Source: a virus. Taken from it: a stretch of DNA of 10,524 bases. A program made the position numbers and the translations under genes. This document shows positions 3,387 to 7,143 of this stretch, piece by piece (position 1 is the first letter of the stretch; every line of letters starts with the position of its first letter). The stretch lies in UHGV virus genome UHGV-0053376, one strand, 5' to 3'. The notes beneath the pieces were generated by a model. That model was not told the DNA's origin. It searched no databases and saw only the letters and a list, made by a program, of their open reading frames with translations.

Positions 3387-3569
3387 CTACGGAATGAGCA
3401 GATCTTCGGGGTTGCTTCCGGCTGACTGACTGGCACTGATTTTCTCTGCGGCCCTTTTATCAATCTGCCTGCGCCAGAAATCGCGCACTGCCCTGTACCC
3501 ACCCGAAAGAAGATACATAACACAGACTGCCGTACAGAAGTACAGCATCACCTGATGAACAAATGTCAT
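3387..3569 (-). CDS. Hypothetical small membrane protein (60 aa)
   Basis: Single predicted transmembrane helix (VMLYFCTAVCVMYLLSGGY) followed by a basic stretch. ATG at 3569 with a weak RBS. Lies downstream of the esterase gene. Confidence 0.3.
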   Translation of the reverse strand: MTFVHQVMLYFCTAVCVMYLLSGGYRAVRDFWRRQIDKRAAEKISASQSAGSNPEDLLIP

Positions 3570-3666
3570 AGTTTCTTACCGTTATGGTTGACAATGAGAA
3601 CTATTTTCATTTAAAAACCGATATACGAAAGCATCTTTTCTTTACATTCTCCATTGGGATTACCTC

Positions 3667-3702
3667 CGCCAGCTTCCGTTCCTGCCGCTGGCGGCTTTTT
3701 TT
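3667..3702 (+). terminator. Plus-strand-oriented intrinsic terminator-like hairpin next to the 3' end of the esterase gene
   Basis: Stem ccgccagc 3667-3674 / gctggcgg 3687-3694 (8 bp), 12-nt loop, then CTTTTTTT on the plus strand. On the minus strand the U-tract would precede the hairpin, so it is not a canonical terminator for the late operon. Confidence 0.35.
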
Positions 3703-3707
3703 GCCGG

Positions 3708-5696
3708 TTATGATGATGCCCGGCTTTCGTTAACTTTGACTGTGACCGTATCAAGCAGTACAGGATACGTCGCTTTTGCCCCCGTGATATCTGTCAGCGT
3801 CAGCGTATCTGCTGTAAAGCCATCATTTGTCCACATCACAAGGTCAAACGCCGTCTGCTCTGTACCATCAATCACCGGAACGACTCTTTCGCTGTTATTT
3901 CCCGCAAAGCGGAAAACAACTGTATGCCAGTTATGGTCAAATGCCCCAAATGTGCCCAGTTGCGCATTCGACTCCCCCTTGTGGTACATCAGATTCAGAT
4001 TTGATGCATCCGTCTGAAGGAAGAATGATGCCAGCATACTGTTTGCTGCCGCGCCTGACGCCCACTGCGACACCGGCCAGTAGAGACCAAAGACAAACTG
4101 TCCGTTCACCAGTTCGCTTCCATCCGGAATTTTGAACCGTACGGCAATTTCACCCCCCTTGCTGAGAAGATTTTTTGCCTCCTCCACCGCAACAGTACGG
4201 AACATCTTCCAGGAGGTCAGTTTACCCGGCTGTTTTTCCAGTCGCAGCGCCTTCCTGCCACTGTCATCCGTCACAGTGCCTTTACCACCGGACGCATTCC
4301 ACTGCTGCTCTGTCCATACACCATTTCCACTGTTCGCATCATATTCAGCCACCGTCCTGGTACTGCTCACGGCCTCATCATGACCAGTACCAGCAACACC
4401 GCCATCCTGCGGTTTCTCAACACCCGGTACCCCCGGACTGACATCATCACCGGGAGTTGTACCACCCGACTGCGGTGCGCTCTGCCCGGTAAGGAACGAT
4501 AATGTCCGCCCGGCGTACTGCAAAATGGCACCTGCCAGGCGGTCTGAAACAATGCCTCTTCGCGCCCAGGAGCTGAAGTGCGTTTTACGATCGGCTGACG
4601 TCCAGTTACTGGCAGTGCGTGACGCAGCGCCATAGTATCCCGCCGGGATAATGTCCGGATCTTCTGACGGCTCGTTTGTCGGCACATTCACACCATGCTC
4701 ATCCGTCATCAACGGCACAAAGTGAATATTCTGCGCCGCCTTGCCTTTATAGCCTCCGTAAACCGCCTCATACTGCACTGCATACTTCGCCTTCCAGTCG
4801 TACGTGGTGTCACCGCAAATCCACGGGACGCCGGACGTTGTCCCGCCAATACACTGGTCTGCAATATCTGCCAGGTCTGCACGGTATTTATTTACCATGG
4901 CAAGAAAAAGTGCATTGTGCTCTGCATGTCTCCCCGAACTGACATCTTTTTCCCCCTGCATCCAGATCACCGACAACAGCACGTTTTTCGGATTTTTCTT
5001 CAGGGCTGCACGCGTTCTGCTGACCAGGTCACGATACAACGGTTTATCCACCCCCCACAGGGAAGAGCCCGCTGTCGCACCCGACGCCTCATTAAACGCG
5101 CCCTCTGCTCCCGCAGTAAATCCCGAATCGCCACGTCCACACGGGACAAGAAGGATCCCCGCACGGGCAGGCATAAACGGCAGCAGTTTTTTGGCCACAT
5201 GCAGGGCATGCCCCACACAGCCATACTGCCCTTTATTGAGGTCTGCTTTCGGGTGATTCAGATTACTCACGTCCTGCACATCATGCAGACAATGGTCTGC
5301 AGGAATAATGTCGTTATATGCACAGGCCGCACCGCCCGGTGTCACCGTGCTGCGACGCGCCAGTTGCTTAATACGCGGGTCAGGACGATCATACGTATCC
5401 GGCAGCGGCAGCCCCTCGCCAAAAGACATCGAGTTGGACTGCCCGGCCAGCGCAATGACAAAGTAATATTCCGGTTCGCTGGTGGTGCTGATAACAGCGC
5501 CACCATCACCCGACGGTTGCACCACCACCGGTGTGGTGACATCACCTTCCGCCGCAATGGCCTGCATCAGGGTATAGGGCGTGATGGCCACCGGACTGCC
5601 AAATGGCTGCCCCCCCTCCTTCAGTTTTTGAGTCAGTCGCTCCGCAAGGTCTGACGGCGACGCCGCCCTGACCACATCGTAGTGTTTAAATGTCAT
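3708..5696 (-). CDS. nanS-p: Prophage sialate O-acetylesterase, NanS-p-like (SGNH/SASA-family esterase with C-terminal lectin-like domain), 662 aa
   Basis: Contains the GQSN(S)M catalytic-serine block (VIALAGQSNSMSFGEG) typical of sialate O-acetylesterase SGNH hydrolases. Strong SD GGGAGGA 5 nt upstream of the ATG at 5696. Position immediately upstream of the lysis cassette mirrors the large esterase ORF found downstream of stx in Stx prophages. Symbol is given on family and context grounds, not sequence identity. Confidence 0.75.
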   Translation of the reverse strand: MTFKHYDVVRAASPSDLAERLTQKLKEGGQPFGSPVAITPYTLMQAIAAEGDVTTPVVVQPSGDGGAVISTTSEPEYYFVIALAGQSNSMSFGEGLPLPDTYDRPDPRIKQLARRSTVTPGGAACAYNDIIPADHCLHDVQDVSNLNHPKADLNKGQYGCVGHALHVAKKLLPFMPARAGILLVPCGRGDSGFTAGAEGAFNEASGATAGSSLWGVDKPLYRDLVSRTRAALKKNPKNVLLSVIWMQGEKDVSSGRHAEHNALFLAMVNKYRADLADIADQCIGGTTSGVPWICGDTTYDWKAKYAVQYEAVYGGYKGKAAQNIHFVPLMTDEHGVNVPTNEPSEDPDIIPAGYYGAASRTASNWTSADRKTHFSSWARRGIVSDRLAGAILQYAGRTLSFLTGQSAPQSGGTTPGDDVSPGVPGVEKPQDGGVAGTGHDEAVSSTRTVAEYDANSGNGVWTEQQWNASGGKGTVTDDSGRKALRLEKQPGKLTSWKMFRTVAVEEAKNLLSKGGEIAVRFKIPDGSELVNGQFVFGLYWPVSQWASGAAANSMLASFFLQTDASNLNLMYHKGESNAQLGTFGAFDHNWHTVVFRFAGNNSERVVPVIDGTEQTAFDLVMWTNDGFTADTLTLTDITGAKATYPVLLDTVTVKVNESRASS

Positions 5697-5889
5697 GAAT
5701 CCTCCCGGTCGGGATAATGTTGTGAGTCAGATGAGGGGCGGGCTGAAGTCCGGAAGTTACAGGACAATGGCAGGAGGAAGACTACAGCCCGCAATACGAA
5801 AAAGGCCGCGCTATTGCGCAGAGTGATTACTGTCGGATATTATTCGCCAGCTGAAATATTACTTCACGTTTTGTTGTTTATTCCTTGCC

Positions 5890-5918
5890 GCCCGCGTCTC
5901 CCAGCGCGGGCTTTTTTT
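5890..5918 (+). terminator. Plus-strand intrinsic terminator
   Basis: Stem gcccgcg 5890-5896 / cgcgggc 5905-5911 (7 bp GC), 8-nt loop, followed by T7 (5912-5918). Confidence 0.45.
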
Positions 5919-5949
5919 GTCCATAAGAAAGCCCCTCCGGAGAGGGGCT
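5919..5949 (-). terminator. Minus-strand intrinsic terminator, back-to-back with the plus-strand one
   Basis: Stem gcccctc 5931-5937 / gaggggc 5942-5948 with tetraloop cgga. On the minus strand it is followed by UUUCUUAUGGAC (complement of 5919-5930). Confidence 0.45.
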
Positions 5950-6209
5950 GGAGAGTGGCGCTATGTGCCATTGCATGGTGCCGGGTGCCTCCCGGTGAGT
6001 TCAGCCCGGTGACACTAAACCCGCATATTCTCGCTTACGATCATCAAAGAGATCATACCGTTCACCAGTCGCCCCTCCGCACAGGGGGATTCACCATGCG
6101 AAATTTTTTTAACAAATGCTCAGCCTGACAGGCAACTGTCAACTTACTGAATTGTGAGGAATTTAACACTTCACAGCACAATATCTTTCCAGCGCCCCAA
6201 AATCATCAG

Positions 6210-6236
6210 GACAGGAGAAAATCTTCTCCCCCTGTC
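6210..6236 (-). terminator. Hairpin overlapping the lipoprotein stop codon (possible weak terminator)
   Basis: ggagaa 6214-6219 / ttctcc 6224-6229 inner stem, plus outer gaca / tgtc pairing. On the minus strand it is followed by CUGAUGAUUUUGGGG, a moderately U-rich tract. Confidence 0.3.
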
Positions 6237-6663
6237 AGAGTTTAAAATCCAGCACGCCATTTCTAAATGCTTTATATACTCCTGAAGACGGTGGTGATGG
6301 TATATCAGCATTCTTTACTGCATTCATCGCTTCACGACATAAATCGGGATCACCGCTTTCTCTTTTAACCTGTAGCAGAAGACCATTCGGGGCCATATAC
6401 ATTCTCAGTGAACACTCTTTTCCTGAATACTTACTCGCATCCTTTAACTGTTCTTCTATGGCTTTCCTGACCTGAATGGCATACTGCCTGATTTCTTCAC
6501 TGGCATCAGGGGTACGTTCCGATGAGCTCAAATTTTGCGACTTTATTAATTTATCTGAGTGATACAGAGAAGCATCATAATTATTTGTCGATACATCTTT
6601 TGTGCAGCCAGTTGTCAGACTGGCTAATATCAAAACAAGAACTGGTACAGCACGGCAATACAT
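6235..6663 (-). CDS. Outer-membrane lipoprotein with a TolA C-terminal (domain III)-like domain, 142 aa
   Basis: Signal peptide MYCRAVPVLVLILASLTTG-C with lipobox-like TTGC and Thr at +2. C-terminal 85 aa (IRQYAIQVRKAIEEQLKDASKYSGKECSLRMYMAPNGLLLQVKRESGDPDLCREAMNAVKNADIPSPPSSGVYKAFRNGVLDFKL) aligns with E. coli TolA domain III as I recall it (…YAGQIKSAIESKFYDASSYAGKTCTLRIKLAPDGMLLDIKPEGGDPALCQAALAAAKLAKIPKPPSQAVYEVFKNAPLDFKP), including both Cys. Good SD (GGAGATGG) and low GC relative to flanks. Confidence 0.8.
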   Translation of the reverse strand: MYCRAVPVLVLILASLTTGCTKDVSTNNYDASLYHSDKLIKSQNLSSSERTPDASEEIRQYAIQVRKAIEEQLKDASKYSGKECSLRMYMAPNGLLLQVKRESGDPDLCREAMNAVKNADIPSPPSSGVYKAFRNGVLDFKL

Positions 6664-6860
6664 TTATCCATCTCCATATTAACAAGAACAATTATCTATA
6701 AAATATAGTAAATATGCGGGATCCGGGAGGACTTGTAACTATCATCTCCGGATCAGCATGTAGTTTTTATTTTTCCGGATGATATATGCCGCAATAATAC
6801 CCCTGCATACAGATGCCTGCAAATATCTACGAAGCATCCGGCGAGAATAAACAAGGAAGT
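6664..6860 (-). promoter_or_regulatory. AT-rich upstream region of the lipoprotein gene containing repeated CCGGAT motifs (candidate promoter/operator)
   Basis: gatccgg 6720-6726 is inverted relative to ccggatc 6748-6754; tccggat repeats at 6774-6780; catccgg at 6835-6841 is inverted relative to ccggatg 6775-6781. The region is AT-rich with several TATA-like hexamers on the minus strand. Exact -35/-10 not assignable by eye. Confidence 0.3.
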
Positions 6861-6863
6861 CTG

Positions 6864-6885
6864 AGGCTATCTTATATGATAGCCT
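6864..6885 (-). terminator. Perfect 8-bp hairpin downstream of the tRNA genes (candidate tRNA-operon terminator)
   Basis: aggctatc 6864-6871 / gatagcct 6878-6885 with loop ttatat. On the minus strand it is followed by CAGACUUCCUUGUUUAUUCUC, moderately U-rich. Confidence 0.3.
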
Positions 6886-6941
6886 GTTGCTCAAAAGACA
6901 ATGATTCACTCATCAGAACCAACAACGCATAATGCAGATAA

Positions 6942-7018
6942 TGGACCGCCATCGAGGACTCGAACCCCGCGCAGCCAGCTTCGAAGGCTGGCGCTCTATC
7001 CCGATGAGCTAATGGCGG
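6942..7018 (-). tRNA. tRNA-Arg, anticodon UCG (would read CGA/CGG)
   Basis: Reverse complement folds as a cloverleaf: acceptor CCGCCAT / ATGGCGG, D-stem GCTC / GAGC with G18-G19 and A20, anticodon stem CCAGC / GCTGG with loop CTTCGAA (U33, anticodon UCG, A37), T-stem CGGGG / CCTCG with T-loop TTCGAGT, 3' CCA encoded. Begins with an unusual C1-G72 pair. Confidence 0.8.
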
Positions 7019-7027
7019 TATGTGATA

Positions 7028-7103
7028 TGGTGGCCCTTGCTGGATTTGAACCAGCGACCTGGCGATTATGAGTCGCTCGCTCTCACCACTGAGCTAAAGG
7101 GCC
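7028..7103 (-). tRNA. ileZ: tRNA-Ile2-like, anticodon CAU (lysidine type), ileZ-like
   Basis: Reverse complement GGCCCTTTAGCTCAGTGGTGAGAGCGAGCGACTCATAATCGCCAGGTCGCTGGTTCAAATCCAGCAAGGGCCACCA is 76 nt with CCA encoded and anticodon loop CUCAUAA. It is nearly identical to E. coli ileX as I recall it. Position between the Q-side genes and the cargo slot matches phage tRNA genes in Stx-like prophages. Confidence 0.85.
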
Positions 7104-7143
7104 GGGCATAGGATAATAACGGTACGTAACTAATTCTGCAATA

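Follow-up and report, generated by a model that had tools for sequence, protein, structure and literature searches.

The closest described counterparts of the locus reported here are the sRNA "dyads" of lambdoid prophages, each consisting of two convergent Hfq-binding sRNA genes between the PR′ cargo and the nanS-p/lysis genes. Tree et al. (2014, PMC4104026) described such a dyad in at least eight Sakai prophages, where the late promoter lies on one side of it and the lysis genes on the other, with convergent sRNAs 3′ of stx2B and in Sp3/4/9/10/11/15/17 (PMC4104026), and EcOnc42 'bookends' stx1 (PMC7547250). STnc100 copies are expressed, being Northern-positive in EDL933 and detected there by RNA-seq as well (PMC5331693); their homologues in Sakai have been seen by Hfq-CRAC and on Northern blots, and the effects reported for sRNA103 on fimZ and espA are indirect only. 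PasD shows structural homology to STnc100, and STnc100 and PasD carry differing seed regions (preprint 10.64898/2026.05.13.724894). The reason for the tail-to-tail retention of both genes is a question that the literature still leaves open (PMC7873438) and for which the present locus provides no new handle.

The window, that is, the whole 10,524-nucleotide stretch of the virus genome UHGV-0053376 that was analyzed, contains a gap at positions 5697–6234 in the gene order DUF968, RusA, Q, methylase, tRNA-Ile2(CAT), tRNA-Arg, TolA-like cargo, gap, SASA esterase, holin, and lysozyme. We are highly confident that this gap is a dyad of the known lambdoid-prophage type. The STnc100-family sRNA on the minus strand (the sense of the late operon), ~210–225 nt long, would be transcribed from its own promoter and stop at the 5949–5930 terminator, while its EcOnc08/21/42-type counterpart on the plus strand, ~180–195 nt long, would start beside the esterase start codon, run antisense through the leader, and stop at 5890–5918. 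Both sRNAs have already been described in pathogenic E. coli prophages, and the feature is real but known. The features referred to below are as follows.

3588–3702, plus strand: third sRNA-like unit (TTGACA 3588–3593, 18 nt, TAAAAA 3612–3617, hairpin 3666–3694 and T7)
5690–5718, plus strand: promoter-like site ATGTCA-17-GATAAT for the plus-strand sRNA (promoter scan)
5725–5918, plus strand: putative EcOnc08/21/42-type Hfq-binding sRNA gene, equivalent to EPEC 'E2348C_1409.E2348C_1408.IGR' (homology)
5810–5844, plus strand: target of the published EcOnc08/21/42 Northern probe (reverse complement of AATAATATCCGACAGTAATCACTCTGCGCAATAGC, 35/35)
5812–5924, no strand: exchangeable cassette relative to the closest relative, E. 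coli EC2 (alignment)
5814–5843, plus strand: candidate internal promoter TTGCGC-18-TATTAT (position homologous to the AsxR promoter of EC2)
5883–5889, plus strand: seed CCUUGCC, directly 5′ of the terminator stem (EPEC homologue)
5890–5918, plus strand: intrinsic terminator with an 8-pair stem and T7, end of the plus-strand sRNA (scan, folding)
5919–6128, minus strand: STnc100-family sRNA gene (Rfam RF02076; EHEC names EcOnc05/EcOnc27/sRNA103; PasD-related) (cmscan)
5920–5949, minus strand: intrinsic terminator of the STnc100 gene (stem 5949–5930, tail UUUCUUAUGG)
5981–6022, minus strand: conserved structured core of the STnc100 sRNA (helices 6015–6022/5997–6004 and 5991–5995/5981–5985)
6030–6063, minus strand: variable region of the STnc100 sRNA, containing GATCAT-N6-GATCAT (homologue alignment)
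6145–6170, minus strand: conserved promoter block of the STnc100 gene (82 unique upstream sequences)
6210–6236, minus strand: imperfect hairpin over the stop codon of the TolA-like cargo gene, then CUGAUGAUUUU (read from the sequence)

The initial annotation had described back-to-back terminators of opposite polarity in the gap, and two strong intrinsic terminators indeed abut at 5918/5919. The plus-strand stem (GCCCGCGT-CTCCCA-GCGCGGGC, 5890–5911) is composed of 8 pairs, 7 of them G–C, closed by a 6-nt loop and followed by T7 at 5912–5918, and the hairpin folds with −16.9 kcal/mol (z −3.5, 0/200 shuffles as stable). The minus-strand stem (AGCCCCTC-TCCG-GAGGGGCT), also of 8 pairs but with a tetraloop, precedes the U-rich tail UUUCUUAUGG, folds with −17.3 kcal/mol (z −4.0, again 0/200 shuffles as stable), and corresponds to model positions 177–206 of RF02076. 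Over positions 3400–7200, 7 terminator-like sites were observed against 3.6 ± 1.7 expected. Because the two 3′ ends abut without overlap, each terminator would also block transcription into the opposing gene, and Q-modified polymerase presumably reads through them in lytic growth. The exact plus-strand terminator recurs in 114 IMG/VR contigs, and other prophages have different stems plus a T-run at the same place (GCCCGAA.., GCCCGAG.., ACCGCTC..). What follows the STnc100 terminator in IMG/VR was EcOnc42-type in 131 cases, AsxR/AgvB-type in 17, tandem in 15, and other in 106, counts that are biased by the search patterns and are not frequencies; a contig search with a 26-nt core pattern returned four loci only and was of little use. 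The imperfect hairpin at 6210–6236, which the window has in common with EC2 only and which was not called by the terminator scan, is possibly a weak terminator of the TolA-like cargo gene.

An Rfam/Infernal scan, which the initial annotation had proposed, identified the minus-strand unit directly as a member of the STnc100 family: cmscan aligned it to RF02076 over the full model (1–206 of 206) with 177.7 bits (gathering threshold 47) and an E-value of 2.9e-41. The terminator first noted on this strand, the significance of which had been missed, is thus the end of an sRNA gene. Among 55 unique homologues, the 35 consensus pairs of the STnc100 fold are 98–100% canonical; two-sided, compensatory changes occur at three pairs, all in the core (6022/5997, 6020/5999, and 6016/6003), and most other pairs are invariant and thus uninformative. 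The core also holds both CCCGGTGA copies. Of the direct repeats cccggtga reported earlier, the second copy is at 6005–6012 as described, and the first is at 5991–5998, the earlier position of 5983–5990 being off by 8 nt; the GATCAT-N6-GATCAT repeat is present as well, at 6039–6044 and 6051–6056. Both sets of repeats are internal parts of the STnc100 RNA and not separate signals. The variable region at 6030–6063 lacks conserved pairing, aligns poorly over the 55 homologues, and is replaced in the Stx2a phage copy by a segment differing in length by 8 nt, making it a candidate for the target-pairing region of the sRNA. Since the segment in the window differs from those of the Sp4 and Sp5 copies and the EcOnc05 and EcOnc27 probes find no match in the window, the targets of this STnc100 RNA may also differ. 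By analogy with its homologues, the RNA is likely to be expressed and associated with Hfq.

Upstream of the STnc100 gene, conservation among the 82 unique sequences begins abruptly at TTAAAT-N4-CTCACAATTCAG, regardless of the sequence lying further upstream. The best −10 candidate in this block, CACAAT at 6156–6151, would place the start near 6144 and give an RNA of ~223 nt, in agreement with the published Northern size of ~222 nt for EcOnc05, and the EcOnc13 Northern probe extends to a position equivalent to 6143 of the window. Transcription probably begins ~16 nt upstream of 6128, near 6144. The hexamer TTGACA (6142–6137) was considered as the −35 element and discarded, because it has no usable −10 and the EcOnc13 probe shows that the RNA already includes this sequence.

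The plus-strand unit is convergent with the STnc100 gene and antisense to the esterase 5′ leader, as confirmed by an orientation check. It matches no Rfam family, and its assignment to EcOnc08/21/42 therefore rests on sequence identity to the published loci, amounting to a 96% mean column identity with Sakai Sp4, Sakai Sp15, and EPEC PP6 in a 300-nt alignment. The RNA ends determined in EPEC (1444978 and 1444797) map to 5737 and 5918 of the window, the latter being the last T of T7. The Sakai Hfq-CRAC peaks map to 5753–5916. The EcOnc42 peak maps to 5746–5828 after correction of the coordinates of Tree et al., which lie 128 nt below NC_002695.2 beyond ~1.2 Mb, as shown by the EcOnc27 probe position, the statement '282 bp 3′ of stx2AB', and the annotated tR′; this offset rules out a placement of the EcOnc42 peak on the esterase CDS. 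EcOnc15 was also considered as the Sp15 counterpart and rejected, because it is StxS and its locus lies between Q and stx1A. The seed sequence CCTTGCC is identical in all four aligned loci (window, Sp4, Sp15, and EPEC PP6), and the RIL-seq targets of the EPEC homologue, including cfa, dppA, emrA, tir, and others, share the complementary GGCAAGG/GGCAGGG (PMC8550237 supplements). Both RNAs of the window would be expected to be trans-acting and to base-pair with their targets with the aid of Hfq, the STnc100 RNA via its variable middle region and the plus-strand RNA via CCUUGCC with GGCAAGG-type sites, for example, in cfa and dppA.

Judged from its sequence, the plus-strand terminator closes an EcOnc08/21/42-type Hfq-binding sRNA, for which expression, Hfq binding, and targets are presumed from the homologues. 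Of the explanations offered initially for terminators in a region without plus-strand genes, small RNAs is therefore the appropriate one, and antisense RNA applies too, in that the same sRNA lies antisense to the esterase leader; the absence of plus-strand genes holds for protein-coding genes but not for sRNA genes. The 5′ end of this RNA is less certain than its 3′ end. The promoter-like site and the esterase start codon, which is on the opposite strand, overlap, and the GATAAT element of the site is invariant in the four-sequence alignments and >90% conserved over 41 variants; the promoter prediction would place the start at 5725 and the EPEC RNA-seq coverage at 5737, 12 nt apart. The published sizes disagree (~271 nt by Northern blotting in Sakai vs 182 nt by RNA-seq in EPEC); the ~271-nt form would start near 5648, and no promoter-like site was seen there.

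The earlier view that the gap contains no convincing ORF was upheld. Small proteins encoded in it would have to come from two plus-strand ORFs, namely the only long one, which has 104 aa and a TTG start (5814–6128) and runs antisense through the STnc100 sRNA, and one of 43 aa (5695–5826), and three hypothetical proteins are in fact annotated beneath the matching region in phages such as PV189400. Conservation rules out both ORFs as genes, however: a stop-free stretch of at least 60 aa on the strand of the long ORF is found in only 14 of the 55 unique homologues, the alignment with the Stx2a phage copy contains an 8-nt length difference inside it, and the reading frame of 43 aa is interrupted in 10 of 40 variants, with 232 non-synonymous against 75 synonymous codon differences (~3:1). 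The RefSeq records examined carry no annotation at all in the gap, and coding of small proteins has, in our estimation, virtually no chance of being correct. Decay is scarcely more plausible. The suggestion that the gap is a relic of an earlier cargo, stx or another moron, with terminators that have lost their function, gains something from the mosaic nature of the region and from the variation of the cargo among relatives, TolA-like here and stx1 or stx2 in Stx phages. Yet both units are intact, complete from promoter to terminator, and near-invariant over 41–55 unique variants, and their homologues are expressed in published experiments; among 5426 complete E. coli genomes, the gap sequence is matched in 2835 and the plus-strand RNA in 1117, and the dyad persists irrespective of the cargo.

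A mere insulating role of the plus-strand hairpin and T-run, protecting the STnc100 gene from stray antisense transcription and yielding no discrete functional RNA, would fit the abutment of the two terminators, the ordinary folding energy of the whole plus-strand RNA (z −0.98), and the modest promoter match (9/12). We nevertheless regard it as very improbable, given that the 96%-identical homologues appear as discrete bands on Northern blots and as peaks in Hfq-CRAC and, in RIL-seq, form hundreds of chimeras with specific targets, and that the seed is conserved base for base.

The antisense partner of the dyad appears to be exchangeable. When the window is compared with EC2, 60 of the 61 differences are found inside 5812–5924 (~110 nt), and the flanks, 5697–5811 and 5925–6234, differ at one base. 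At the same position, the EC2 prophage (L225 5153–5205) has an Rfam AsxR match of 63 bits abutting STnc100, which begins 6 nt after TAAAAT, with the −35 TTGCGC and the 18-nt spacer as in the window; both hexamers of the candidate internal promoter are conserved among variants. The plus-strand RNA of the window likewise occupies the location of AsxR/AgvB, the antisense partner abutting the STnc100 terminator. Despite the identical slot, it was not assigned to AsxR/AgvB, because RF02703/RF02702 gave no match in the window even at E ≤ 10 and the conserved 3′ ~42 nt of these RNAs (GTATCTCATGC..GCCCGAACCCAYTCGGGC) are absent from it.

Purely as a hypothesis, the internal promoter would yield an RNA of ~70 nt (5849–5918). 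It is conceivable, albeit rather unlikely, that the locus is a plug-in effector slot, in which an AsxR-type module has been swapped for an EcOnc42-type one and which would encode either a GcvB sponge or a GcvB-like mimic, possibly with two nested RNAs in the window. If the internal promoter fires as for AsxR, an undescribed, AsxR-sized ~70-nt RNA would be nested within the ~180–195-nt RNA; the longer form would lie antisense over the esterase leader, with possible cis effects on nanS-p, and the shorter one would carry the CCUUGCC seed together with a GcvB-like UUGUUGU stretch. UUGUUGU is the complement of the CACAACA decoy in AgvB, which occupies the same slot of other prophages. As a separate observation, the RIL-seq contact of the EPEC homologue with the dppA leader is compatible with a GcvB-like mimic and is no demonstration of one.

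A further plus-strand hairpin plus T-run had been noticed next to the esterase 3′ end, and it is present at 3666–3702: after CCGCCAGC...GCTGGCGG (3666–3694) come C and a T7 run that ends at 3702, 6 nt short of the esterase stop codon. With the promoter-like elements preceding it, a ~78-nt RNA (3625–3702) is predicted that converges on the esterase stop codon. Against Esr41 (RF02676), 3625–3702 scored 20.5 bits, below the gathering threshold of 102, with an E-value of 0.05 when 161 nt were searched and of 1.2 when the search covered 3.9 kb. The unit shares with PasA/PasC (EcOnc51/52) the slot between the esterase stop and the holin as well as the orientation antisense to the late operon, and with the PasA/PasC-type units of Sakai Sp12 a TTGACA −35 and a hairpin plus T7 terminator. 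Neither blastn nor alignment revealed homology of 3588–3702 to PasA or EcOnc51/52, and identification as their homologue was rejected for want of significant sequence similarity.

The main value of these results, with the gap read as a known sRNA dyad, is in annotation, as both sRNAs are missing from the RefSeq records examined, the plus-strand RNA is without an Rfam family, and phage pipelines sometimes call spurious "hypothetical proteins" over the STnc100 gene. As the locus also shows, the dyad of Shiga-toxin phages occurs next to non-toxin cargo as well, a TolA-like protein in this case, and its antisense partner is exchangeable, as a cassette of ~110 nt, among near-identical prophages. 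On a small scale, this concretely illustrates the re-wiring of host post-transcriptional networks by prophages.

It is worth comparing the window with the described systems in this respect. The AsxR/EcOnc27 dyad of the Stx2 phage Sp5 and the Sakai dyads occupy the same slot, after the PR′ cargo and before the nanS-p/lysis genes, and likewise consist of two convergent Hfq-binding sRNA genes with abutting terminators and STnc100 as the minus-strand partner. They diverge in the cargo, which is a TolA C-terminal-domain protein in the window and Shiga toxin in the Sp5 dyad, and in the antisense partner, which is of the longer EcOnc08/21/42 type in the window and of the 51–60-nt AsxR/AgvB type in the Sp5 dyad. 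Relative to the EcOnc08/21/42 loci of Sakai and the EPEC E2348/69 locus 'E2348C_1409.E2348C_1408.IGR' (PMC8550237), the window has the exact probe match, the seed, the terminator stem, and the orientation with respect to the esterase in common, differing by a few substitutions in the 5′ third (5719–5769) and one in the terminator loop. The RF02076 STnc100 family, with 11 copies in EDL933, shows the same helices, terminator, and prophage location as the window copy. Finally, PasD1/PasD2 of EPEC (EcOnc13 homologues) share with the STnc100 gene of the window both the slot upstream of the esterase and the strand sense of the late operon, but are shorter (172–173 nt) with a different 5′ and seed region, whereas the window copy scores as STnc100 proper.

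The 538-nt gap at 5697–6234, between the start of the sialate esterase gene and the stop codon of the TolA-like gene, very probably corresponds to a known prophage sRNA dyad, that is, a pair of convergent sRNA genes, formed here by STnc100 and an EcOnc08/21/42-type RNA beside a non-toxin cargo gene. The back-to-back terminators of opposite polarity noted in the initial annotation are both real and strong on comparison with shuffled sequences; the plus-strand terminator (5890–5918; −16.9 kcal/mol) has an 8-pair stem with 7 G–C pairs and a T7 run, the minus-strand terminator (5949–5920; −17.3 kcal/mol) an 8-pair stem, a tetraloop, and a U-rich tail, and none of 200 shuffles equaled either. The absence of a convincing ORF likewise holds, the 104-aa and 43-aa ORFs both being poorly conserved among homologues: a stop-free stretch of at least 60 aa survives on the strand carrying the 104-aa TTG ORF in only 14 of 55 unique homologues, and the 43-aa ORF is disrupted in one quarter of the variants, its non-synonymous changes outnumbering the synonymous ones about 3:1. 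Of the two origins offered for the plus-strand terminators, small RNAs or relics of cargo, the finding of the dyad bears out the former.

The window is a lambdoid prophage late-gene region, in which every protein-coding gene lies on the minus strand.

Gene order around the gap
9982–10506, minus, DUF968 protein
9595–9969, minus, RusA
8777–9598, minus, antiterminator Q
7144–8202, minus, N6/N4 DNA methylase
7028–7103, minus, tRNA(CAT), tRNA-Ile (ileZ type) in the annotation of relatives
6942–7018, tRNA-Arg(TCG)
6235–6663, minus, 142-aa protein with a TolA C-terminal domain
5697–6234, gap
3708–5696, minus, 662-aa DUF1737-SASA-DUF6645 sialate esterase, nanS-p type
Downstream of the sialate esterase, minus, DUF826 protein, holin, DUF1327 protein, and lysozyme

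The same order is found in a prophage of E. coli EC2, whose gap carries no RefSeq annotation. The TolA-like gene (Pfam PF06519, E = 5.7e-23), preceded by a promoter-like TTTGCA-18-TATTAT at 6823–6794 (minus), occupies the place of the Shiga toxin genes in Stx phages; its EC2 homologue bears the RefSeq name "cell envelope integrity protein TolA", and, speculatively, Tol-dependent entry of colicins or phages could be hindered by a TolA domain III decoy carried on the phage. ARAGORN calls the tRNA at 7028–7103 tRNA-Met (CAT), and its homologues in EC2 and Sakai are annotated as tRNA-Ile; an ileZ-type tRNA(CAT) decodes Ile once lysidine-modified. With tRNA-Arg(TCG), it makes up the usual rare-codon set of such phages, and the third tRNA of Sakai prophage Sp4 (argO) is missing from the window. 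About 85 nt 3′ of the Q stop codon lies a strong minus-strand terminator (8694–8679; CCCGCCGCCTGGCGGG then T6), and 8672–8777 is the expected place of tR′ and of a short PR′-tR′ RNA resembling StxS/EcOnc15; another minus-strand terminator lies at 8366–8349. Downstream of the lysis genes, a 70-aa cold-shock-type ORF (334–546, minus) follows an Rfam cspA thermoregulator 5′ UTR (114.2 bits; gathering score, 78), and 307–691 appears to hold a csp gene of the prophage together with its regulatory leader.

On the minus strand, 5919–6128 matches the Rfam model STnc100 (RF02076) over its whole length (177.7 bits; gathering score, 47; E = 2.9e-41), and the minus-strand terminator of the gap is the terminator part of this model. 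In an alignment of 55 unique homologues from IMG/VR contigs and reference loci, 35 pairs of the consensus fold are 98–100% canonical, and three pairs of the helix 6015–6022/5997–6004 show two-sided compensatory changes. Both direct repeats of the initial annotation are present, the first CCCGGTGA copy lying at 5991–5998 rather than 5983–5990. Both CCCGGTGA copies fall within the conserved core, one inside the loop of this helix and the other forming the 5′ side of the hairpin that follows, whereas GATCAT-N6-GATCAT (6039–6056) lies in a poorly conserved middle segment (~6030–6063), likely the target-pairing region. Among 82 unique copies, conservation 5′ of the Rfam start sets in abruptly at TTAAAT-N4-CTCACAATTCAG, whatever the upstream sequence, and in tandem arrays this block directly follows the terminator of the preceding copy. 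Taking CACAAT (6156–6151) as the −10 hexamer, we infer a start near 6144 and an RNA of ~223 nt, consistent with the ~222 nt reported for EcOnc05 and with the EcOnc13 probe, which extends to the equivalent of 6143. STnc100 corresponds to the Hfq-binding RNA EcOnc27 (Sakai) or sRNA103 (EDL933) immediately 3′ of stx2B, where its sequence variants are predictive of HUS outcome (PMC12711010); 11 copies are listed in EDL933, transcribed, one of them Northern-confirmed (PMC5331693). STnc100 RNA is also contained in STEC outer-membrane vesicles (PMC12370729) and, according to a preprint, is related to EPEC PasD (10.64898/2026.05.13.724894).

On the plus strand, the terminator is, by sequence correspondence, the 3′ end of a predicted EcOnc08/21/42-type sRNA. 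The reverse complement of the published EcOnc08/21/42 Northern probe, AATAATATCCGACAGTAATCACTCTGCGCAATAGC (Tree et al. 2014), matches the plus strand exactly (35/35) at 5810–5844, and the RNA detected by the probe is therefore plus-strand in the window. The Hfq-CRAC peaks of Sakai Sp4 fall on 5844–5916 (EcOnc08) and 5753–5838 (EcOnc21), with the Sp4 terminator aligning exactly onto 5890–5918, and the Sp15 peak (EcOnc42) falls on 5746–5828 after correction of a 128-nt offset between the paper and NC_002695.2, verified in three independent ways. Coordinates in Table S2 of Tree et al. (2014) are ~128 nt below NC_002695.2 at Sp5 (1.27 Mb) and Sp15 (2.92 Mb), with no such shift at Sp4 (1.18 Mb), and placing the EcOnc sRNAs from that table requires this correction. 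The homologue in EPEC E2348/69 is "E2348C_1409.E2348C_1408.IGR" (1444978 to 1444797, 182 nt), an sRNA that the EPEC list explicitly identifies with EcOnc08/21/42. Among its partners in RIL-seq are the leaders of cfa (767 chimeras) and dppA (197), as well as emrA, tir, and espC; their common target motif, GGCAAGG/GGCAGGG, is complementary to CCUUGCC of the sRNA (PMC8550237 supplements). Identity of the window to the EPEC, Sp4, and Sp15 loci is 96%, and the seed CCTTGCC (5883–5889) and the terminator stem are the same in all four. The EPEC 5′ and 3′ ends correspond to 5737 and 5918, and from a promoter-like ATGTCA-17-GATAAT (5690–5718) transcription would begin at 5725, a difference of 12 nt from the EPEC 5′ end; the ~271 nt of the Sakai Northern exceeds the lengths implied by both. 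This sRNA matches no Rfam family, is present in 1117 of 5426 complete E. coli genomes, and is unannotated in all matches listed. Within the esterase leader, a short terminator-like hairpin with U5 (CTGCGCAATAGCGCGG CCTTTTT) occurs on the minus strand at 5806–5821, a stretch that on the plus strand simply belongs to the EcOnc42-type RNA. In the lysogen, this hairpin and the STnc100 terminator could jointly prevent transcription from the sRNA promoter from entering nanS-p.

Compared with EC2, the closest full-length relative, the gap differs at 61 positions, 60 of which lie inside 5812–5924, the left 115 nt being identical and the right 310 nt having one difference. Here EC2 matches Rfam AsxR (63 bits), abutting STnc100, whereas the window has an EcOnc42-type 3′ module like that of VT1-Sakai. 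The left junction lies at a TTGCGC common to both; in EC2, it stands 18 nt upstream of TAAAAT, with the AsxR start 6 nt further, and the window shows TTGCGC-18-TATTAT at the equivalent positions. From this site, a nested RNA of ~70 nt (5849–5918) would arise; it is a hypothesis only, and we consider it improbable, and the published EcOnc08/21/42 probe would be unable to detect it. At >90.8% identity, the whole gap occurs in no complete RefSeq E. coli genome, and its separate pieces occur elsewhere at 99–100%. As judged from these alignments, the gap is a recombinant mosaic unrepresented among the 5426 genomes.

The third plus-strand hairpin with a T-run noted near the esterase 3′ end is also real (3666–3702). 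Upstream lie a perfect TTGACA (3588–3593), 18 nt, and TAAAAA, predicting a plus-strand RNA of ~78 nt with its 3′ end 6 nt short of the esterase stop codon. The slot and orientation are those of EPEC PasA, equated by its authors with EcOnc51/52 (PMC8550237 supplements), and the TTGACA-plus-terminator build is that of Sakai Sp12 units, but no sequence homology to any of these is detectable. Since such homology is lacking and the likeness to Esr41 is below threshold (20.5 bits against 102), 3588–3702 is named only a predicted sRNA-like unit of no assigned family.

The tail-to-tail arrangement recurs in other prophages. Among prophage contigs of IMG/VR, an A-run and a G+C hairpin very often lie ~10 nt beyond the STnc100 terminator, and on the opposite strand they read as a hairpin then a T-run; since the search patterns bias the neighbor counts, no frequencies are given. 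At least four unrelated stems (GCCCGCG.., GCCCGAA.., GCCCGAG.., and ACCGCTC..) fill this slot, those with GCCCGAA/GCCCGAG being AgvB, AsxR, and EcOnc03 themselves, so that the occupant varies within a conserved structure and polarity. Some STnc100 copies instead precede further tandem sRNA units or unrelated sequence. At one locus (6954–7560 of IMG/VR contig 649989948_000011) and 48 similar ones, the cargo–esterase interval holds three tandem sRNA-like units on the late-operon strand, two STnc100 copies flanking a different terminator-ended unit (GGCCCATCCGCTCCGGTGGGCC then T5), with only the last copy abutted by a plus-strand terminator. Because the 3′ ends of the two sRNA genes do not overlap, it is reasonable to infer from this geometry that the abutting terminators insulate them mutually. 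The region downstream of PR′ is known to have "carried convergent sRNA genes", the pair EcOnc02 (AsxR) and EcOnc27 lying 3′ of stx2B with the same layout in Sp3, 4, 9, 10, 11, 15, and 17 (Tree et al. 2014, PMC4104026). The dyad is already in the literature, and the feature is therefore not new; its remaining value lies in annotation and in a clean example of cassette exchange.
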